Below, piece by piece: positions 4,490 to 51,246 of a DNA stretch of 64,000 nt. Both the position numbers and the translations under genes were made by a program. The stretch lies in contig JADJUS010000004.1 of NCBI GenBank assembly GCA_016716905.1, positions 1,419,603 to 1,483,602 of the forward strand, in the 5' to 3' direction. Every line of letters begins with the position of its first letter. Position 1 is the stretch's first letter. This DNA comes from Acidobacteriota bacterium (lineage in GTDB: Bacteria > Acidobacteriota > Vicinamibacteria > Vicinamibacterales > SCN-69-37). The notes under the pieces were generated by a model. It worked only from the letters and a program-made list of their open reading frames with translations. It was not told the DNA's origin and did no database searches.

Positions 4490-7189
4490 GTGTTGACCCT
4501 GATCAAGCGTGTGTGTGTGGTGTTCGTCCTGATCGCGCTGACCGGCTTTGTGCCGGCATTGGTGCATGGCGCGGCGGGCCAGACGCCTCCCCCGGTGGCC
4601 CAGCAGGCCCAGCCGCCCGCCCAGCCGCAGGCGCCGGCGCTGCCCCCGACCGATATCGGCCCGGTACTCCGGAGTATCGAACTGAAGCTCGTCCCCGAGA
4701 ACGTGTTCACCACGGTCCCGTCCGAGACCTACCTCTACTACGTGCGCACGGAGGCGTCCCGGCCTCTCACGCGCGGCACGTGGGTGCCCTACAACGCGGC
4801 GACCGAGGCGTCGCTGCTTGCGGACTTCGATCGGCTGTTTGCGACGCCTTTTGTTGACGACATGAGGATCGAGGTCGTGGACAGCGTCTATCCGAACGGT
4901 GTCATCGGCAAGCAGGTGGTGTTCCTGATCGAAGAACGGCGCCGCATCAAGATTGTTGATTACCCTGGCTCAAAGGAAGTGGCCATCGCCGACATCGAGA
5001 GCAAGCTGAAGGAACTGAGCCTCGACCTGAGGCTGGATTCCCCGGTGGATGACGCCGTGGTGCGCCGCGTGGCGGGCGTGGTCAAGACCCTGTATGCCGA
5101 AAAGGGCTATCAGTTTGCCACCGTGACGCCGACGACGAAGCCCGTGGCCGGCGGTCCGAAGCTGGTGCATCTGTCGTTCAACATCGATCAAGGGCCGAAG
5201 GTCAGGATTCGCGAGGTGGTGTTCGACGGCAACAACGAGGTCAGCGACGGCGCCCTGCGCAAGCGGATGAAGGTCAACAAGGCGCGCGGGCTCCTGGGCT
5301 TCATCAGCGGCGGCGGCACCTATCAGGACGCCAAGTTTGCCGAGGATGCGCAAGCGCTTGAGGCGTATTTCCGTGAACAGGGGTACGTGTTCGCGAAGGT
5401 GGGCCAGCCGCAGATTGAGCCGATTGAAGACTCGGCCGACGGCAAGAGCCGGTGGGTGCGACTCCGGATCCCCGTGGACGAGCGGACGCGGTATCGCGTG
5501 AAGTCGGTGTCGGTGGCGGGCAACGAAAACGTACCGACGGCGGCCATTCTCTCCGTGTTCGAGAAGCTCAAGGTGGGCGACTACTACTCGGAGAAGCCCG
5601 TCCGAAAGGGTTACGAAAAGCTTCAGGAGTTTTACGGCAGCGCGGGGTTCTGGGAATTCACCATGGACCCGGAAGTGAAGCCGAACGACTGGAATCTGGA
5701 CACCGGCGAACCGATCCCCGGGTTTCAGGGCACGCCCGAAGTGGACGTGGTCATCAAGATCCAGGAAGGTGTGCGTTACTTCCTCAACCGGCTGACGTTC
5801 CTCGGCAACACCACCACGCGCGACTCGGTCATCCGGCGCGAGATGCGGTTGGTGGAAGGCGGCGTCTTCAACATGGAGTCGCTGAAGTTCAGCGTGCGCC
5901 GGTTGAACCAACTCGGCTACTTCAAGCCGCTCGAGAGCGAAGACTCGGTCAAGATCGAAAAGACTCCGAACGCCGACGGCAAGGTGGACGTGCGGCTGAA
6001 GTTTGAAGAGCAGAACCGCAACCAGTTGAGCTTCGGCGCCGGCATCTCGCAGTTCGAGGGTTTCTTCGGACAGCTGGGCTTCCAGACGTCCAACCTGATG
6101 GGCCGCGGCGAGACACTGTCGATTTCAGCGCAGAAGGGTTCGCAGGCGAAGAACTATCAGATCGCCTTCACCGAGCCGTTCCTGTTCGACCGCCCGATTA
6201 CCGCCGGCATCGACTTGTATTCGCGGGAGGTGAACTATCTCTTCCAGTTCACCCAGGGGTCGACCGGTGCCAACCTCCTCTTCGGGTTCCCGGTAAAGAG
6301 CTGGTCGCGGTTTTATATCGGCTACAGCCTTGAGAATGTGTCGGTCTCGAATATCTCCGACATCTACAAAGACCCGAACGTGCTGGCGGGGAACCCGCTG
6401 CTGAGTGAATCACTGCTCATCAACTCGAACGGCAAACGAGTGATCAGCAAGATTTCGCCCAGCATCATGTACAACACGATCAACGAGCCGATCTTCCCGA
6501 GCAGCGGCACCAAGTACACGGCGGCGTTTGACATCGCGGGTCTGGGCGGCGACACGTCGTTCCTCCGCGGACGACTTGAGGGCACCTGGTATCTGCCGGT
6601 CACGCCCCGGACGTCGTTCGGGTTCCGCTTGCAGGGTGAATACGTCAGGCCGTACGGCGACACCACGACCCTGCCCATTTTCGAAAAGCTTGTGCTCGGC
6701 GGCGAGTACAGCATTCGCGGGTTCGACCTGCGCAGCGTCGGCACGCGTGACGAGCGCTCGGGCCTGGTGCTGGGCGGCAACAAGACGCTGCTGTTCAACG
6801 GCGAATACATGATTCGCGTCGGCGGCCCTGTGCGCCTCGTGTTCTTCTATGACGCCGGTCAGGTGCGCGACATCGGCGAGCGGTTTGTGTGGAAGGAAAC
6901 CGTGTTCGAGACCGTGGCGGCCACGCCGCCCCTGCTGGCAGACCCTGGACAGGAAGTGGAACTGACGCCGGAAGGTTATGTGGCGCCCACGCCCACGCTT
7001 CGGGAGATCGGCAAGAGCTACGCGTTCAAGACGTCGATGGGCAGCGAAATCCGCTTCTTCATGCCGGTGCTCAACGTACCGTTCCGGCTGATCTTTGCGT
7101 ACAACCCGCAGCGTGGCCGGGTGTTCAACAACAACCTGCGGCCGCAGCCGAAGTTCACGTTCCGGTTTGCTGTGGGAACGACGTTCTGA
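4490..7189 (+). CDS. bamA: Outer membrane protein assembly factor BamA
   Basis: Signal-like N-terminus (LIKRVCVVFVLIALTGFVPALVHGAAG), a Pro/Gln-rich linker, POTRA-like repeats, and a C-terminal Omp85 barrel ending FRFAVGTTF. I chose the GTG at 4490 (or TTG at 4493) because the track start at 4352 overlaps clpC. Confidence 0.85.
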   Translation: MLTLIKRVCVVFVLIALTGFVPALVHGAAGQTPPPVAQQAQPPAQPQAPALPPTDIGPVLRSIELKLVPENVFTTVPSETYLYYVRTEASRPLTRGTWVPYNAATEASLLADFDRLFATPFVDDMRIEVVDSVYPNGVIGKQVVFLIEERRRIKIVDYPGSKEVAIADIESKLKELSLDLRLDSPVDDAVVRRVAGVVKTLYAEKGYQFATVTPTTKPVAGGPKLVHLSFNIDQGPKVRIREVVFDGNNEVSDGALRKRMKVNKARGLLGFISGGGTYQDAKFAEDAQALEAYFREQGYVFAKVGQPQIEPIEDSADGKSRWVRLRIPVDERTRYRVKSVSVAGNENVPTAAILSVFEKLKVGDYYSEKPVRKGYEKLQEFYGSAGFWEFTMDPEVKPNDWNLDTGEPIPGFQGTPEVDVVIKIQEGVRYFLNRLTFLGNTTTRDSVIRREMRLVEGGVFNMESLKFSVRRLNQLGYFKPLESEDSVKIEKTPNADGKVDVRLKFEEQNRNQLSFGAGISQFEGFFGQLGFQTSNLMGRGETLSISAQKGSQAKNYQIAFTEPFLFDRPITAGIDLYSREVNYLFQFTQGSTGANLLFGFPVKSWSRFYIGYSLENVSVSNISDIYKDPNVLAGNPLLSESLLINSNGKRVISKISPSIMYNTINEPIFPSSGTKYTAAFDIAGLGGDTSFLRGRLEGTWYLPVTPRTSFGFRLQGEYVRPYGDTTTLPIFEKLVLGGEYSIRGFDLRSVGTRDERSGLVLGGNKTLLFNGEYMIRVGGPVRLVFFYDAGQVRDIGERFVWKETVFETVAATPPLLADPGQEVELTPEGYVAPTPTLREIGKSYAFKTSMGSEIRFFMPVLNVPFRLIFAYNPQRGRVFNNNLRPQPKFTFRFAVGTTF

Positions 7190-7198
7190 GGAAAGAAA

Positions 7199-7246
7199 AG
7201 GACCTCTGAGGTTCAACCTCAGAGGTCCTGGTTACCTCAGAGGTCT
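7199..7246. repeat. ACCTCAGAGGT-core palindromic repeats; probable bidirectional terminator
   Basis: Perfect inverted repeat AGGACCTCTGAGGTT-c-AACCTCAGAGGTCCT (7199-7229) plus a third core copy at 7234-7244, between two convergent stop codons. Confidence 0.6.
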
Positions 7247-9767: not shown

Positions 9768-10595
9768 ATGCCGCTGGGCCTGATCGCCGGGAACGGAACG
9801 TTTCCTTTTTTGATTCTCAGAGCCGCCCGCCAACTGGGCCACGAGGTCGTGGTGGTGGCGGTGGAGGGCGAGGCCTTTCCGGCGCTTGAAGACCTGGGCA
9901 AAGAGCTGGGCGGCGTGCAGCATTCGTGGGTGGCGCTCGGCCATCTCGGCACCTGCATCAAGACGCTGCAGCATGCCGGCGTGACCAAAGCCATCATGGC
10001 CGGCCAGGTCAAACACACGAAGCTGTTTGGCGGTGTGTTGCCGGACCTGACCATGCTGTCGGTCCTGGCGCGGCTCAAGTCGAAGAACACCGACGCGCTG
10101 ATTGCCGCCATCGCCGATGTGCTGCTCAAACACGGCATCACCTTGATGGACTCCACAGAGCTGCTGGCAGGCTTGCTCGCGTCACCCGGTGTGCTCACGA
10201 CCGCGCAGCCGACAGAATCCATGCAGGCGGACTTCACGTTTGGCTACGCGGTGGCCGACGCCGTGGCCGGCCTCGACGTCGGCCAAACCATCGTCGTCAA
10301 AGACCGCGCGGTGGTGGCGGTTGAAGCGATGGAAGGGACCGATGCCGCGATCGAACGAGCAGGGGCGTTGGCGGGCCCAGGCACGCGCGTGGTGAAGGTG
10401 GCCAAGCCGAAACAGGACATGCGCTTCGACGTGCCGGTCGTCGGTGTGGCCACCATTCGTGCCATGCAGGCCGCCGGCGCCGACGCGTTGTCCATTGATG
10501 CCGGCCGGACACTGGTGCTTGATGGCGCGGCGTTTCTTTCGGCCGCAAACGAGGCCGGCGTGGTGGTGGTGGGCCGGCCGCAGGGGACCAAATGA
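9768..10595 (+). CDS. lpxI: UDP-2,3-diacylglucosamine pyrophosphatase LpxI (DUF1009 family)
   Basis: 275 aa. [12 protein letters not shown]-terminus, the [28 protein letters not shown] motif, and [14 protein letters not shown], all typical of LpxI. Lipid A gene context. Confidence 0.8.
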
Positions 10596-15775: not shown

Positions 15776-17059
15776 ATGACTTCTTATCGCGCGAGTTGGG
15801 TACTGCCGATTAGCGGCCCGCCCCTGCGAGATGCCTGGGTGTCGGTCAGCGACGGCCTTGTGACCGAGGTCGGGACCGGCCGCGCGCCGAGTCCTGTCGT
15901 TGAATTGGGCGACGTCGCCCTGTTGCCAGGACTGGTCAACGCGCACACACACCTCGAATTGAGCTGGATGGCTGGGCTCGTGCCGCCGGCGGGGGCCATG
16001 GACGAGTGGATCAAGACGCTCCTGAGCGTGAGGCGCGCCGGGCCTGCCGGGGGAGACGAAACGGTCGTGACCGCCATGACGCGCGCCGTGGGCGACATCC
16101 TCGACACCGGCACGGCCCTGGTGGGCGACATCTCGAATTCGCTGATGTCGGTGCCCGTCTTCGCGGCGCGGGAACTGGCCTGCGTCGTCTTTCACGAGAT
16201 CCTCGGCTTCAACCCCGCGGACCCGCAGGCAATGGTCCGCGACGCCCAAGAAAGACGTCGGGTGTCATTAAAACGACCTCTGAGGTCGTTTCAGGATAGC
16301 GACTCGCTGAAACGACCTCAGAGGTCGTTTTCAGACACACCCGACGCCTTTTCTGCGGTCGTCGGGCACGCGCCCTACTCGACGGCGCCCGCGCTGTTCG
16401 CAGAAATCGCCGCGCAGCATCAGGGGCCGGCGCCCCTCTCCGTGCACATCGCCGAATCGGCCGAAGAAGTGGAGTTTCTTCACACCGGCCAGGGACCGAT
16501 GCGCACGCTGCTGGAAACACTCGGGGTGTGGACCGGTGCATGGCAGGTGCCACGGTGCGGCCCGCTGGAGTTCCTCAAGCGGCTGGGGTACCTCAAGCCA
16601 GGCACCTTGCTGGTCCACGGCGTCCACTTGACCGTTCGGGAACTCGAGCAGGCCCGCGACGCCGAGGCCGTCATCGTGACGTGCCCGAGAAGCAACACGT
16701 GGGTCGGAGGCGGTGTGCCGCCCATCGCCCGGTTTTATGGTGCGGGCGTGCCCGTGGCCATCGGCACCGACAGCCTCGCGTCCGCCGAGACCCTCAACAT
16801 GTTCGACGAATTGGCAGCGCTCCGACGGCTCGCGCCGGAAGTGGATGCCGCGCAACTGCTCGACAGTGCCACCAGGGTGGGAGCCGAGGCGCTCGGGTTT
16901 GGTCAGCACTACGGCACCATCAGCCCTGGACGTCAGGCCCAGCTGGTGTCCGTCGCGTTACCGGCCGGCGTCCGGGGCCGTCCTGAGGATGTGGAAGAAT
17001 ACTTGGTGAGTGGAGTGTCAGCCGCTGACGTCTCACGGCTGAACGTTCCGTCCCACTAA
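15776..17059 (+). CDS. Amidohydrolase superfamily deaminase (chlorohydrolase/aminodeoxyfutalosine-deaminase-like), carrying an in-frame palindromic-element insert
   Basis: LPGLVNAHTHLELS (HxH), SVHIAES, LLVHGVHL and IGTDS metal-ligand motifs. I chose the ATG at 15776 (MTSYRASWVLPI); the track start at 15521 overlaps mqnC. Confidence 0.7.
   Translation: MTSYRASWVLPISGPPLRDAWVSVSDGLVTEVGTGRAPSPVVELGDVALLPGLVNAHTHLELSWMAGLVPPAGAMDEWIKTLLSVRRAGPAGGDETVVTAMTRAVGDILDTGTALVGDISNSLMSVPVFAARELACVVFHEILGFNPADPQAMVRDAQERRRVSLKRPLRSFQDSDSLKRPQRSFSDTPDAFSAVVGHAPYSTAPALFAEIAAQHQGPAPLSVHIAESAEEVEFLHTGQGPMRTLLETLGVWTGAWQVPRCGPLEFLKRLGYLKPGTLLVHGVHLTVRELEQARDAEAVIVTCPRSNTWVGGGVPPIARFYGAGVPVAIGTDSLASAETLNMFDELAALRRLAPEVDAAQLLDSATRVGAEALGFGQHYGTISPGRQAQLVSVALPAGVRGRPEDVEEYLVSGVSAADVSRLNVPSH
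16248..16354. repeat. Composite nested palindromic element (outer GACGTCGGGTGTC-type arms, inner AAAACGACCTCTGAGGTCGTTTCAG arms) inside a CDS
   Basis: Inner perfect 25-nt arms at 16270-16294 and 16307-16331 with a 12-nt spacer. Outer imperfect arms at 16248-16266 and 16334-16354. Confidence 0.85.
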
Positions 17060-17910
17060 ATGTTTGACCGCCTCCGCACCTACGCCTCGTTCGTCCGCAT
17101 CAGCCACTCGGTATTCGCGTTGCCGTTTGCGCTGGTTGGGGCGCTGCTGGCCACCGAAGTCGAGCCCTGGAGCTGGATGCGCGGCCTGTGGATTGTCGTG
17201 TGTATGGTGACCGCCCGCAGCGCGGCGATGGGGTTCAACCGGCTGGCCGACGTCGCGTATGACGCGCGTAATCCCCGCACGGCCATGCGCGAACTGCCGC
17301 AAGGACGGATGAGCCGCCGCGAAGCGATCGCCTTTGTCGTCGTCTCATCCCTGGCCTTCGTCTACGGGGCCTCGCACCTCGGCTGGATCTGCCTGGCGCT
17401 CTCGCCGGTCGCGCTCGCCATCGTCTTCTGGTATTCGTTCGCCAAGCGCTTCACCTCGTACGCGCAGCTGTTTCTTGGCTGGCCATGGCCGTGGCGCCGG
17501 TGGGTGGATGGCTGGCCGCCGGGGGCAGGGAAGGGTGGGAGCCCTGGCTGCTGGGACTCGCCATCGGCGCGTGGGTCGGCGGCTTCGACGTGCTCTACGC
17601 CTGTCAGGACGTGGACGTGGATCGGCGCGAGGGGTTGCACTCCATTCCCGTGCGGTTCGGCATTGCGCGCGCGCTCAGCATCTCGCGGTTCATGCACGTG
17701 GTGGCGGTGGTGACGCTCGCCGCACTGGGAGTGGTGGCCGATCTGGGCACAGTCTACATGGCGGGCGTTGTGGGTGTGGCCGCGTTGCTCGTCTATGAGC
17801 AGTCGCTCGTGCGTCAGGACGATCTCTCGAAGGTCAAACTGGCCTTCGACCTCAATGGCTGGGTCGGGTTGTTGTATCTGGCCACGACGGCGGCGGATTT
17901 GTTTTTATGA
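17060..17910 (+). pseudogene. UbiA-family aromatic prenyltransferase (MqnP/4-hydroxybenzoate polyprenyltransferase-like) interrupted by an apparent 1-nt deletion near 17479/17480
   Basis: The two track ORFs (17060-17713 and 17485-17910, different frames) together give a complete UbiA protein. Frame 1 runs up to ...YAQLFLG; frame 2 continues LAMAVAPVGGWLA...GGFDVLYACQDVDVDRREGLHSIPVRFG. This could be an assembly error. Confidence 0.7.
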
Positions 17911-34387: not shown

Positions 34388-34526
34388 AGTCCGGGGTCCG
34401 CAGGTCCGGCAGGTCCCAAGGTTCGCGGAGCCGCGCCGTTTGGCGCGGGGCTTCATGTGGAGACAAGATGGCGCGCAGCGCCCACCGCGAACCCACGCAC
34501 CTATCGGACCTGCGGACCCACGGACC
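34388..34526. repeat. Imperfect large inverted repeat whose arms are GGTCCGN heptamer runs
   Basis: The left arm ggtccgcaggtccggcaggtcccaaggttcgcgg and the right arm ccgcgaacccacgcacctatcggacctgcggacccacggaccc share an exact GGTCCGCAGGTCCG/CGGACCTGCGGACC segment. Inner hairpin CCGCGCC-gttt-GGCGCGG at 34431-34448. It fills the gap between the convergent permease and pntB. Confidence 0.75.
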
Positions 34527-35924: not shown

Positions 35925-37543
35925 CGGCGGAACATCTTGAGCATGCGGTGGGTGACCAGGAAGCCACCGGAAATATTGAGTGTGGCCAGGAAGATGGCGG
36001 CGACGCCGAGCACGCTCGCCGCAGACGTGAGCCCGCCGCCAATCTGCAGCATGCCGCCCACAACGATGATGCCGCTGATGGCGTTGGTGACGCTCATGAG
36101 CGGCGTGTGCAACGCCGGCGTCACGCTCCAGACGACCTGGTAGCCGATGAAACAGGCCAGCACGAACACAGTGAGGTGGGTCAGGAACGACTGTGGCGCG
36201 CCCAGGCCAACGCCAAAGAGCACGAGTCCCGCAGCCAGTAACGGCCACCAGCCGCCAGACGACGAGGACTCATCGGCGGGAGCGCCATGGCCGCCGCTCT
36301 TGCCATGGCTAGAAGGCTTCTTCGTGGCCGTCGCCTTGGTTGCCTTCGTGGCTACCGCGGCCGAACCAGAGGCCGAAGCAGGAGCGGGAGGAGCGGACTT
36401 GTCCGCCGAAGCTGAAGCCGCAGGCTTCGGGAGCGAAGGCGGAGGTGGCCACATCATCGCCCCGTCCTTCAGCACCGTCATCGGCCGCACGATGTCGTTC
36501 TGTTCGTCGATGGTGAATGCGGCCGCGCCGCCCATCTCTTCGAGCAGGTGCACGATGTTCGTGGCGTAGAGCGTTGAGGCTTGCTGCGACATGCGCGACG
36601 GCAGGTCGGTGTAGCCGATGACCGTCACGCCGTTCACGTCTACAGCCTGGCCGGGTTGCGTCAGTTCGCAGTTGCCCTGCATCTCGGCCGCAAGGTCCAC
36701 CACCACAGACCCGCGCTTCATCGAGTGGACCATGTCGGCGGTGATGAGGATGGGCGCGCGCTTTCCGGGAATCAGCGCCGTCGTGATGATGACGTCCACC
36801 TCTTTGGCCTGCGCCGCGAAGAGGGCCATCTCGGCGGCGATGAATGCCGGGCTCATTTCCTTGGCGTAGCCGCCCTGGCCGCTGCCGTCTTCGTCGAGTT
36901 CCACTTGCAGGAACTCGGCGCCCATGGACGCCACTTGTTCTTTGACGACAGGCCGCGTGTCGAAGGCGCGGACGATCGCTCCGAGCGACCGTGCGGTGCC
37001 GATGGCCGCGAGCCCGGCGACGCCGGCGCCGATGATGAGGACCTTGCAGGGCAGGATCTTGCCGGCCGCCGTCGTCTGGCCGCCAAGAGGACGCTGCAGC
37101 GCGGCGACGGCCTCGATGACCGCGCGATAGCCGGAGAGGTTGCCGGTGGACGAGAGCGCGTCCACTTTCTGCGCGCGCGTGGTGCGCGGCACCTGGTCCA
37201 TCGCGACGGCGCTGATGCTGCGGTCGCCAAGGCGGCGGACCAGGTCGGTGTTTTGTGCGGGATACAGGTAACTGACGAGCGTCTGGCCGCGGCCGAGGCG
37301 CGCGGCTTCCTCATCAAGTGGCGGCCGCACCTTGACGACGACCGGCGCGCTCCACGCAGCGACGGTGTCGCCAATCGTGGCCCCCGCCGCCGCATATGCC
37401 GCATCGTCAAATCCAGCGGCGAACCCGGCGCCTGACTCGACCGTGACGCTGAAGCCTAGTTGTGTGAGTTTGGTGACTGAATCCGGTGTGGCGGCAACCC
37501 GTCGTTCCCCGTGGGCTGTCTCCTTCACGATGCCGACGATCAT
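35921..37543 (-). CDS. pntA: NAD(P) transhydrogenase subunit alpha PntA (dI plus membrane dIIa) with an Ala/Ser/Pro/Lys-rich linker
   Basis: [20 protein letters not shown] and the [21 protein letters not shown] motif. C-terminal 4-TM segment. ATGA overlap with pntB. Confidence 0.9.
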
Positions 37544-37590
37544 TCAGTCATTGTACTCCGGCTCGACTCGACGCCTGGCGATTGCGCGGT

Positions 37591-37785
37591 TCAGTCCAGC
37601 GTCTCCTTGAGCGTTCCGGCTTCCATTCCAGCTTGGGCCGACATCTTTGGTCGCCTCCTGACCACGTGGCCCACCTCGTGTGTGCCGGTGTCTCCAAGGC
37701 CGCCGGCAACCTGCTCGAGGGCGTCGTCGCTGAGTGGTTCCGGGCTCCCCGGCTTCGGGTCCGGCTGTGCCTTCTTGTCGCTCAT
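37591..37785 (-). CDS. Small hypothetical protein (64 aa) with a double-glycine-leader-like motif
   Basis: The ATG at 37785 is preceded by AGGAGG with a 4-nt spacer. Sequence: MSDKKAQPDPKPGSPEPLSDDALEQVAGGLGDTGTHEVGHVVRRRPKMSAQAGMEAGTLKETLD. GC-rich third codon positions in the first half. Confidence 0.5.
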   Translation of the reverse strand: MSDKKAQPDPKPGSPEPLSDDALEQVAGGLGDTGTHEVGHVVRRRPKMSAQAGMEAGTLKETLD

Positions 37786-37822
37786 GTGACCTCCTGCGCT
37801 GGGGGTGTCCGCGTGACGGCCA

Positions 37823-37851
37823 ATGATCAGGCAGGGGCGGCCAGAGGTCAA
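37823..37851 (-). promoter_or_regulatory. Candidate promoter for the small ORF (TTGACC-17 nt-GATCAT on the minus strand)
   Basis: Minus-strand -35 TTGACC (37851-37846), a 17-nt spacer, and -10 GATCAT (37828-37823), about 37 nt upstream of the ATG. Confidence 0.35.
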
Positions 37852-37915
37852 GGAGACATCCGCGAATCGGATCGGCGAGGCGTTGGACCCGCGAGACAGC
37901 GTGACAGTCGATCTG

Positions 37916-37978
37916 CAATCCACAATCAGCAATCACTCCATCCCGATCCTCAATCCTCCATCCTCAACCCTCAATTGG
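37916..37978. repeat. Nine tandem heptamers of CAATCNN/CCTCAAT type
   Basis: caatcca caatcag caatcac tccatcc cgatcct caatcct ccatcct caaccct caattgg. This is the same family as both arms of the 58204-58582 structure. Confidence 0.8.
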
Positions 37979-38021
37979 GGCGCCCATGGAGGGAAGCGCC
38001 TCACAGTAATATGGTGGGCGT

Positions 38022-41476: not shown

Positions 41477-41612
41477 GGGGACGGGTGTCGATCTGTGGAA
41501 AATTCCGGAACCGGAAAAGACGTCGGGTATCTTTTTCGTTGCCGGTGAAGCGAAAAAGACACCCGACGTCTTTTCCGATGCGCGAGTTTTCCACAGATCG
41601 ACACCCGTCCCC
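41477..41612. repeat. 136-nt nested palindromic element (outer GGGGACGGGTGTCGATCTGTGGAAAA arms, inner GGAAAAGACGTCGGGT arms)
   Basis: Outer 26-nt perfect arms at 41477-41502 and 41587-41612. Inner 16-nt perfect arms at 41513-41528 and 41561-41576. It starts 1 nt after the HDAC stop and ends 14 nt before the leuS GTG. Confidence 0.85.
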
Positions 41613-46110: not shown

Positions 46111-46539
46111 CTAGCCCCACCCGGACCCCTCGCCGCCCTCCTTGGCCTGGCGTAGGCGCCGTTTCTCGCGTTTTCCAGGGGCCACCTCCGGGCCGCGGGT
46201 GCGCTGGGGGCCGGCCAGCCGGGCCATTTCCAGCATGGCCTTCACCTGGGGTGAGGGCTCGGGTGTGACGTCTTCGTAGAGCGCCCTGGCCAGAGCCTTG
46301 GCCATGTGGTGGCTGGCCAGGCCCAGCACGATCACCCGCTGGCGCACTCCGCGGGGCCGCGAAACCTCCACCACGTCGCCGAGCCTGAGCGGCCGCTGCG
46401 CTTTTGCCGGCTGGCCGTTGACCTCCACCTTGCCGCCCTTGCAGGCCCGTTGCGCTTCCGACCGCGTCTTGCACAAACACGCCACGTCCAGCCAGACATC
46501 GAGGCGGCAGGGGGTGCTGATTTCGGGATCGGGGCTCAT
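46111..46539 (-). CDS. S4-domain RNA-binding protein (Hsp15/HslR-like)
   Basis: RLDVWLDVACLCKTRSEAQRACKGGKVEVNGQPAK S4 motif with a basic C-terminal tail. Confidence 0.7.
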   Translation of the reverse strand: MSPDPEISTPCRLDVWLDVACLCKTRSEAQRACKGGKVEVNGQPAKAQRPLRLGDVVEVSRPRGVRQRVIVLGLASHHMAKALARALYEDVTPEPSPQVKAMLEMARLAGPQRTRGPEVAPGKREKRRLRQAKEGGEGSGWG

Positions 46540-46541
46540 AA

Positions 46542-46625
46542 GGGGACGGGTGTCTACCTGTGGAAAACTCCCGGAACAACGTTACCCGAGTTCCCGGAGT
46601 TTTCCACAGGTAGACACCCGTCCCC
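46542..46625. repeat. 84-nt hairpin element, variant arm GGGGACGGGTGTCTACCTGTGGAAAA
   Basis: About a 35-bp stem with one mismatch and a 14-nt loop. The arms differ from the other copies by GAT>TAC on the left and the complementary ATC>GTA on the right. Confidence 0.85.
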
Positions 46626-46651
46626 CTCTCATTCGAGATCCAGGAAGAGAG

Positions 46652-46722
46652 GGGGACGGGTGTCGATCTGTGGAAAACTCGCCGGTTGAAAACGAGTTTC
46701 CCACAGATCGACACCCGTCCCC
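46652..46722. repeat. 71-nt hairpin element, arm GGGGACGGGTGTCGATCTGTGGAAAA
   Basis: 30-bp stem with one mismatch and an 11-nt loop (ccggttgaaaa). It ends 15 nt before the M14 peptidase ATG. Confidence 0.85.
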
Positions 46723-51126: not shown

Positions 51127-51246
51127 GAGAACGACCTCAGTGCCAAAACGACCTCTGACTGGCAAAACGACCTCTGAGGTAATTACCGACGACAATTGCC
51201 GGTAATTACCTCAGAGGTCGTTTTGGTTTCAGAGGTCGTTTTGTTT
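51127..51246. repeat. Nested palindromic structure made of five AACGACCTC(T/A)G-core copies
   Basis: Perfect 26-nt arms CAAAACGACCTCTGAGGTAATTACCG (51163-51188) and CGGTAATTACCTCAGAGGTCGTTTTG (51200-51225) with an 11-nt spacer. Further half-copies lie outside on both sides. Confidence 0.85.

Follow-up and report, generated by a model that had tools for sequence, protein, structure and literature searches.

How does a coding sequence come to hold, in frame, one palindrome nested inside another? The question is raised by a 64,000-nucleotide (nt) stretch of an Acidobacteriota genome (Vicinamibacterales, SCN-69-37; assembly GCA_016716905.1, contig JADJUS010000004.1, positions 1,419,603 to 1,483,602), which we refer to as the window. 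Such a composite palindrome lies at 16248-16354 of the window, within a gene for a putative aminofutalosine deaminase of the amidohydrolase type (15776-17059, plus strand). Inverted doublets of short repetitive extragenic palindromic (REP) units have been given the name REPINs (hairpin-forming doublets of REPs), and in the Pseudomonas GI REPINs the starts of the two units are 71 bp apart (Bertels & Rainey 2011, PMC3116915). Our analysis makes it probable that the composite arose when a REPIN associated with a REP-associated tyrosine transposase (RAYT) landed in the apex of a palindromic repeat already present in a permissive connector of the enzyme, and that it is translated as an extra loop.

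Nested insertion in an amidohydrolase gene

The inner arms of the composite (16270-16294 and 16307-16331) are 25 nt long, 100% complementary and 12 nt apart, and they lie inside an imperfect outer pair in which 15 nt on each side (16251-16265 and 16337-16351) are 93% complementary, just as the initial annotation of this DNA had described. We call the outer pair module B and the inner doublet module C. The left arm of module B, AAGAAAGACGTCGGGTGTC (16248-16266, plus strand as for the whole composite), encodes QERRRVS and also occurs without the inner module in the loci L081 and L086 (L-numbers are our labels for compared loci and metagenome contigs); the right arm, GACACACCCGACGCCTTTTCT (16334-16354), has an AC bulge and one mismatch and encodes SDTPDAFS. 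The left REP unit of module C encodes LKRPLRSF and the inverted right unit LKRPQRSF, while the spacer at the apex (16295-16306) exists in two natural alleles, QDSDSL in the window and QGVADP. Each inner arm is in itself a 21-nt palindrome, AAACGACCTC-W-GAGGTCGTTT. This pattern, with up to three mismatches, has 4 matches in the window against 0.01 expected, and the outer-arm motif has 4 against 0.10 expected; the latter include both arms of an element at 41516-41573, which bears out the proposed match between the outer module and the palindrome at 41477-41612. Folded as single-stranded DNA, the 114 nt from 16244 to 16357 reach -44 kcal/mol (z = -10.6), and none of 200 shuffles was as stable. 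The reading frame, as claimed, stays open through the block: the open reading frame (ORF) of 427 amino acids (aa) is intact, and its insert-bearing segment reads ...QERRRVSLKRPLRSFQDSDSLKRPQRSFSDTPDAFS.... Candidate tryptic peptides across the insert are SFQDSDSLK and SFSDTPDAFSAVVGHAPYSTAPALFAEIAAQHQGPAPLSVHIAESAEEVEFLHTGQGPMR. Rfam gave no match at its gathering threshold anywhere in the window, and no terminator-like site was called at 16248-16354. The same nested structure is present in three independent metagenome assemblies obtained from wastewater (L083-L085) and in L209, and the protein MBK9240650.1 from an NCBI metagenome-assembled genome (MAG) is identical to the window amidohydrolase; because of these independent assemblies and the identical MAG protein, the composite is not an assembly artefact.

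Comparison with orthologues shows that the composite is an insertion and in which order it was built. We measured the linker between two conserved protein anchors in 88 orthologous loci. It is exactly 51 nt (17 aa) long with no hairpin signal (z about 0) in 44 of them, a strong hairpin is absent in 74, and all 87 measurable lengths are multiples of three. The alignment with Nis0429 (3V7P) places 19 gap positions opposite the window insert. Orthologues without palindromic DNA thus have the plain linker in place of the peptide segment, in line with the insertion that had been proposed. The nearest relatives, L081 and L086, carry module B in the form AAAAGACGTCGGGTGTCTTTTTC-ATC-GAAAAAGACACCCGATGTCTTTT, and where they have the 15-nt apex TTTTTCATCGAAAAA, the window and L083-L085 have ATT, the C doublet and CA (69 nt), a net gain of 54 nt and again a multiple of three. 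Because these nearest relatives carry B alone, module C is the later, nested gain. No target-site duplication is seen: direct repeats are lacking on either side of the insert, and the B apex was replaced rather than duplicated.

In the AlphaFold model of the protein (mean predicted local distance difference test score, pLDDT, 83.7), the insert follows the helix 150-166 and precedes the strand 191-197, and residues 168-188 form a low-confidence loop (pLDDT < 50). The topology of the (beta/alpha)8 barrel would put this helix-to-strand connector on the side of the barrel away from the active site. L007 (CAZAZR010000076.1), which of the genome representatives is nearest to the window, has a run of N exactly at the palindrome (around position 5700); a frameshift there was considered and rejected, the interruption being an assembly gap. 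Palindromes of this type break short-read assemblies and can mimic frameshifts.

The inner module and its transposase

The initial annotation needs a correction here: the inner module is no orphan palindrome but a REPIN for which a cognate RAYT transposase can be identified. Searched with the 17-nt core ACGACCTCWGAGGTCGT, metagenome contigs yielded at least 120 stretches. We counted as strict members those with the extended consensus on contigs of at least 60% GC, after removal of duplicates; part of the core matches in contigs of 30-50% GC are due to chance or to unrelated families. Among the matches listed there were 43 strict, non-redundant members, 23 of them inverted doublets and 20 singles; the sample was chosen by exact match to the core, and some singles have a decayed partner (L138, L179). 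The distance from core start to core start in the doublets is 33-40 nt, mostly 36-40. Roughly one in ten of the C copies among the matches listed lies in verified coding sequence, and the related copies in the window are intergenic. The metagenome contigs have no taxonomy, and they are tied to the lineage of the window by companion repeat families, by homology of the flanks of L099 and L171 to 37543-38021 of the window and by Acidobacteria MAG accessions.

RAYT genes were located through the spacing of the repeats, since three loci have two groups of C units about 700 nt apart. The interval encodes a protein of 221-222 aa in two of the three (L094 and L158), with the motifs PNHFHFVL, YQGRFRAFPV and RYVEANAVRAGLV. 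Both ORFs match the Pfam family Y1_Tnp (44 and 45.7 bits, cut-off 23) and the NCBIfam model NF047646, 'REP-associated tyrosine transposase' (E = 1.4e-21, 76.9 bits). The two proteins are 56% identical, their genes have a third-position GC of 0.65-0.67, and each gene has C doublets on both sides. The same layout of RAYT and C doublets recurs in four further assemblies (L211-L214), between an acyltransferase gene and rho. A member of this RAYT cluster, MBK9239815.1, and the protein identical to the window amidohydrolase, MBK9240650.1, are on contigs that both measure 1,934,998 nt, and their accession numbers are close to each other; because of the equal contig size, the genome of the window very probably encodes this RAYT. 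A transposase beside the repeat clusters of the window was also sought and rejected: the ten small ORFs there are an S4-domain protein, ribosomal protein S20, MarC, a pilin-like protein, OmpH, the DNA polymerase III delta subunit, PadR and three without a match.

Three further observations concern these sequences. The last codons of the RAYT and its TGA stop come from the flanking C unit (…CCCCAAAACGACCTCTGA; 2806-2822 in L094, 3656-3672 in L211-L214), and in L094 it is the doublet on the right that provides the stop. A motif containing GTAC (GGGTACAC, GTGTACCC or GGTACC) recurs in or beside the spacers of many C doublets (L094, L100, L139, L178, L130, L141 and others), those on either side of the RAYT among them, and might serve for recognition or cleavage. 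In contigs of 29-32% GC (L089, L096, L106, L132, L140, L146, L162, L177), the core, as ACGACCTCAGAGGTCGT, is at the apex of longer AT-rich palindromes (for example AAACTTCCAGTTTTTAC...GTAAAAACTGGAAGTTT) of one or more low-GC organisms, where it could be a coincidence of the search or could belong to a distantly related family.

Host gene, reuse of the site and other copies

The amidohydrolase matches the Pfam family Amidohydro_1 (E = 2.7e-29) and retains every invariant catalytic residue. Foldseek searches with the predicted fold returned the aminofutalosine deaminase of H. pylori (7LKJ/7LKK) and Nis0429 (3V7P/4M51), with template modelling scores of up to 0.82. Homologues are present in Vicinamibacterales and in other Acidobacteriota, and the genes around it belong to the futalosine pathway (MqnA/D-like, radical-SAM, UbiA, UbiX and UbiE). 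The sequence and the modelled fold therefore suggest a putative enzyme of the aminofutalosine-deaminase type in the vitamin-K2 (futalosine) pathway. The UbiA-family prenyltransferase gene directly downstream (17060-17910) has a deletion of 1 nt at about 17479 in comparison with the 99%-identical L083 (CTTGG-CTGG in the window, CTTGGTCTGG in L083), which shifts the frame past residue 139; the futalosine operon would thus contain a true pseudogene unless the deletion is a sequencing error, and the amidohydrolase frame is unaffected. In L001 a second GC-rich palindrome with an 18-bp stem (GCGGGCGGGTGCGGGCGG...CCGCCCGCCCCCGCCCGC) is found near the 5' end of the same amidohydrolase gene (10077-10126), the length of which is unchanged relative to orthologues.

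The connector has been used repeatedly. About five unrelated palindrome types occupy it across species: B, C, the L003 type (32-bp stem), the L001 type (22-bp stem) and the related types of L016 and L018. In 1.56 Mb of orthologous loci, 11 of the 42 strong hairpins are at this connector, or 8 of 39 after removal of duplicate contigs. On a neighbour-joining tree, which is approximate, the carriers fall into two separate clades: clade I holds L002, L003, L001, L087, L088, L086/L007, L081, L083 and the window, with the sister L004 having no palindrome, and clade II holds L016 and L018. In the clade of L087, L088 and L210 the C modules are degraded and partly deleted, with the reading frame kept. 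For the palindromes of L001, L003, L016 and L018 type, neither their own loci (4-21 kb) nor the metagenome loci gave further copies, save one arm of L001 type in L151. Turnover was also seen at other sites, for example at an orthologous intergenic site where L151 has a C doublet and L184 a B module, and at a site in the HutH gene with A and C in L159 and C alone in L138, where A is a third palindromic family with arms of the type GGGGACGGGTGTCGATCTGTGGAAAA.

In the window, family A forms an intergenic cluster of overlapping inverted pairs at 46521-46722, between an S4-domain gene (beside the ribosomal protein S20 gene) and a 932-aa gene, with no adjacent transposase. The A arms at 41477-41612 enclose an intergenic copy of module B (41512-41577), and this nested palindrome, which has a 304-aa gene on one side and a probable gene for leucyl-tRNA synthetase on the other, follows the same nesting logic as the one in the amidohydrolase. 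The inner module had been reported to recur at two intergenic places. This holds for 51127-51246, a cluster in which C-type units (AAAACGACCTCTGA) are repeated, with 26-nt perfect inverted arms at 51163-51188 and 51200-51225; the palindromes at 7199-7246 share the core ACCTCWGAGGT with C and differ from it in their flanks. Another inverted repeat, at 34394-34519, has 35-nt arms (83%) and a 56-nt spacer, is unlike families A, B and C in sequence and lies between two convergent genes, for a 918-aa permease-like protein and a PntB-like transhydrogenase (minus strand).

Copies of C in frame were found in genes whose Pfam domains flank or span the repeat: methionine synthase (MetH), DNA polymerase III alpha (DnaE), TrmFO/GIDA, an MrfA/Hrq1-like helicase, histidine ammonia-lyase (HutH; two orthologues, same site), a NagA-like amidohydrolase, a Ser/Thr kinase, MutS2 and DUF72. 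They are read as KTTSEVV, KRPLRSF or NDLRGRF, and the third reading frame of C has a TGA codon when the core is CTCTGAGG. Two repeats separated by about 250 nt are in frame in a single DnaE-like protein (L100/L206): within HHH_6 a C doublet (KTTSEVVSTSGYMKRPQRSF), and a B module (KKTSGVFF...KKTPDVFS). Six apparent Ser/Thr kinases (L157, L147, L133, L203, L185, L104; identified by Pfam in L157 and read from translated DNA in the other five contigs) carry a C unit at the same position before a conserved (R)ALVME, for example YGLTETTSEVVSRALVME; this reflects either an old insertion spread by expansion of the gene family or repeated insertion.

Modules A and B are present in the same set of contigs as C. 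The variable flanks just outside the C element are complementary over at least 6 nt in 33% of members, compared with 2% of controls with mismatched flanks, and because of this difference we conclude that C typically lies within an outer stem; these stems are unrelated to one another in sequence. The nested combinations comprise B in A (41477-41612), C in A (L159, L161), C in B (the amidohydrolase) and C beside an arm of L001 type (L151), so the proposal that the modules combine combinatorially stands. Module B (AAAAGACGTCGGGTGTC) and the L003-type palindrome (AAAACCGTCGGGAGGC) have the tetranucleotide CGTC beside the stem, with the motif inside the palindrome on both arms.

Competing explanations and known systems

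Over 10 kb the window shares 99.1% identity with L083, yet 12 of the 20 differences in the gene fall within the 15 nt from 16294 to 16308. All members of the cluster have one of the two spacer alleles, and the most divergent, P0131, has that of the window, which points to one replacement event in one sub-lineage, most simply a short-patch conversion from another REPIN copy. A clean inversion of the spacer was rejected: the reverse complement agrees at 12 of 18 positions and the direct sequence at 6 of 18, a weakly significant excess (binomial P of about 0.03 for the central 14 nt), and since 6 mismatches remain in the reverse complement, the change is a replacement and not a clean flip. A hypermutable spacer was likewise rejected, as the divergent L209 retains the window spacer with one change.

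The account we prefer runs as follows. Module B had earlier replaced most of the short helix-to-strand connector of the amidohydrolase. Module C, two inverted REP units and a spacer that can form a hairpin in single-stranded DNA, then landed at the apex of B; its family would be mobilised in trans by the single-copy RAYT, an enzyme of the HUH/Y1 type. Because both insertions kept the frame, the composite would be translated as a linker of about 38 residues, 21 above the usual 17 and partly disordered, and because the site should face away from the active site, the enzyme would tolerate it. Selection would maintain the reading frame and otherwise tolerate the insert, which is presumably expressed and harmless. 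The RAYT would be what moves these elements, and hairpin apices may be their preferred landing sites, a preference that would account for their nesting as well as for the serial turnover at the connector. A bolder version makes the site itself a landing pad for palindromes: RAYT-type elements would prefer hairpin apices, an ancestral hit in a permissive connector would seed serial nesting and replacement, and the excess conservation and the compensated stem changes would mean that the hairpin rather than the peptide is what is selected within the coding sequence. We regard this version as rather doubtful; if true, core enzymes would gain new surface loops from selfish palindromes again and again.

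Several observations weigh against the preferred account. The NF047646 score of the RAYT ORFs, 76.9, is slightly below the curated cut-off of 80. No RAYT gene is present inside the 64-kb window, and the assignment of one to its genome draws on equal contig sizes and near accession numbers and not on the sequence of the locus. The tetranucleotide GTAG is absent from the C consensus AAAACGACCTCWGAGGTCGTTTT and directly precedes C in L151 alone, where it is part of the arm of L001 type; the C unit thus has no GTAG tag of the kind typical of published RAYT-associated REPs. An all-versus-all comparison of flanks gave no clean empty site besides the amidohydrolase series, and no target-site duplication was found, so that the chemistry of insertion is not visible. 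Between the window and L209 the flanks are 13.1% different (31% at third codon positions) and the 114-nt linker 3.5% (P = 5e-4), with 4 linker differences against 14.8 expected and, in the inner 62 nt, 1 against 8.6. The pair L081/L086, which carries B only, has 8.3% difference in the linker and 19.7% in the flanks (P = 0.014). Between L016 and L018, which are sister species, divergence in the linker keeps pace with that in the flanks, yet among 23 stem pairs 15 are identical, 6 show compensated double changes and 2 show other changes. Such excess conservation and compensation is unexpected for a purely neutral passenger; possible causes are homogenisation with the REPIN family or replicative selection inside it, a tract of recombination, and selection on the hairpin.

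The last of these causes would make the structure a functional hairpin kept for the host, with the peptide as a by-product. It could act in RNA, as a processing, stability or translation-pause signal in the futalosine operon, or in DNA, where gyrase or proteins with affinity for bent DNA could bind it, as with the REPs of Escherichia coli. The slow divergence of the two linkers and the compensated pairs of L016/L018 speak for it, as does the presence of some palindrome at the site in all members of clade I but L004, whereas the palindromes are unrelated in sequence between species and most orthologous loci have no strong hairpin. The decay of C in the clade of L087, L088 and L210, the occurrence of the same modules in many unrelated genes and intergenic sites, and the lack of an Rfam match or a terminator-like site at the insert count against it too, and the excess conservation would also be expected from REPIN family dynamics or a recombination tract. 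Because the sequences are unrelated, most orthologues are without a hairpin, one clade shows decay and the modules are scattered, we consider a hairpin that benefits the host an unlikely, minority possibility.

DNA uptake sequences, too, occur in frame in permissive parts of proteins, and the C core might be a short signal of this sort that accumulates by biased gene conversion or DNA uptake and not by transposition. An identical core of 17-21 nt is found in many contigs and at the same site in homologues (the six kinase contigs and the two HutH genes), the block is conserved above background, and the wholesale replacement of the spacer between identical arms in one sub-lineage resembles short-patch conversion. 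We nevertheless judge this improbable, given that the unit is not an oriented short motif but two inverted copies around a variable spacer, with the potential to form a hairpin, that a RAYT gene is bracketed by the same doublets and that, to our knowledge, nothing is known of competence in this lineage. Origin in place by template switching (quasi-palindrome correction), with no mobile element and with the gene copy as a possible source of the family, would fit the perfect arms, the compensated changes and the lack of a target-site duplication; it is made very improbable by the same B and C sequences at many unrelated loci, by the association of C with its own transposase and by the discrete presence or absence of the 54-nt block in the nearest relatives. 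Hardly any weight falls on a pseudogene, or on an artefact assembled from palindromic reads: the 1-nt deletion in the downstream UbiA-family gene and the N run of L007 at a palindrome that breaks assemblies could be read that way, but the nested structure recurs in the window, in the independent L083-L085, in L209 and in NCBI MAG proteins, the frame and the invariant residues are intact, and all linker variants are in frame.

With a REPIN carried into the gene by a RAYT as the preferred explanation, module C agrees with the published REPIN/RAYT systems (PMC3116915) in its inverted REP doublet with a less conserved spacer and a predicted hairpin, in being dispersed, multi-copy and mostly intergenic, and in having a Y1/HUH RAYT at a conserved chromosomal position with family doublets on both sides (L094, L158, L211-L214). 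It differs in that the amidohydrolase copy is intragenic, translated and nested in another palindrome, in the shorter distance between unit starts (about 36-40 nt against 71 bp), in showing no evident GTAG tag and in its host lineage, the Acidobacteriota (Vicinamibacterales). We found no published description for Vicinamibacteria or Vicinamibacterales in the literature consulted. Compared with bacterial miniature inverted-repeat transposable elements (such as Correia/NEMIS and RUP), which are also small non-coding mobile repeats with inverted ends in or near genes, C lacks both a target-site duplication and terminal inverted repeats of insertion-sequence origin, and its enzyme is of the Y1 and not the DDE type.

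In 2000 Ogata and co-workers reportedly described palindromic repeats that are in frame and translated in Rickettsia genes. The initial annotation held that in-frame palindromes of this kind were known from Rickettsia and knew of no such family in this kind of high-GC genome. Opitutus terrae, Thauera, Xanthomonas and Stenotrophomonas have high-GC genomes. All four are among the hosts of intragenic REPs in the survey of Di Nocera et al. 2013 (PMC3733652), which found REPs tagged with GTAG or CGTC in frame in proteins of several species other than Rickettsia; in-frame palindromic repeats are thus not confined to Rickettsia, and the novelty had been overstated. The Rickettsia palindromic elements (RPEs), summarised in the same paper (PMC3733652), are palindromic inserts in frame in functional genes, where they are translated. 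The amidohydrolase insert shares with them the in-frame position in a functional gene and differs in host lineage, in genome type (about 65% GC, free-living) and in having an identifiable cognate transposase; by lineage and base composition it is unlikely to belong to RPE-1 to RPE-10. Intragenic REPs are often dimers that encode 20-30 aa, show a bias to genes of replication and repair (DnaE2, uvrA, recB) and include a case in which two Xanthomonas species have different REPs at roughly one and the same place in recB (PMC3733652). Likewise, C has hit DnaE, MutS2 and a helicase, and the amidohydrolase site has been reused; the differences are the repeat families, the nesting of a REPIN in another palindrome inside coding DNA, the occupation of one site by about five palindrome types across at least 12 species in two clades, and a block conserved above its host gene.

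The basic phenomenon, palindromic repeats in frame, is thus already known; what is new is the lineage, the specific families and their RAYT, the nesting of repeat in repeat within a coding sequence and the depth of the natural series at one site. Inserts of this kind inflate the apparent variation in protein length and break assemblies, as the N run in L007 illustrates, and those who annotate such MAGs must reckon with many proteins that contain peptides like KTTSEVV and KRPLRSF. The amidohydrolase connector offers an unusually clean natural series at a single site, from no insert through B only to B and C, with two alleles of the spacer, copies in decay and, in sister species, palindromes of unrelated sequence, and this series can be used to study how REPINs land and turn over and how an enzyme tolerates them. 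With this finding, the known range of REPIN/RAYT systems and of REPs translated as protein loops comes to include the Vicinamibacterales, abundant and little-studied Acidobacteriota of soil and wastewater.

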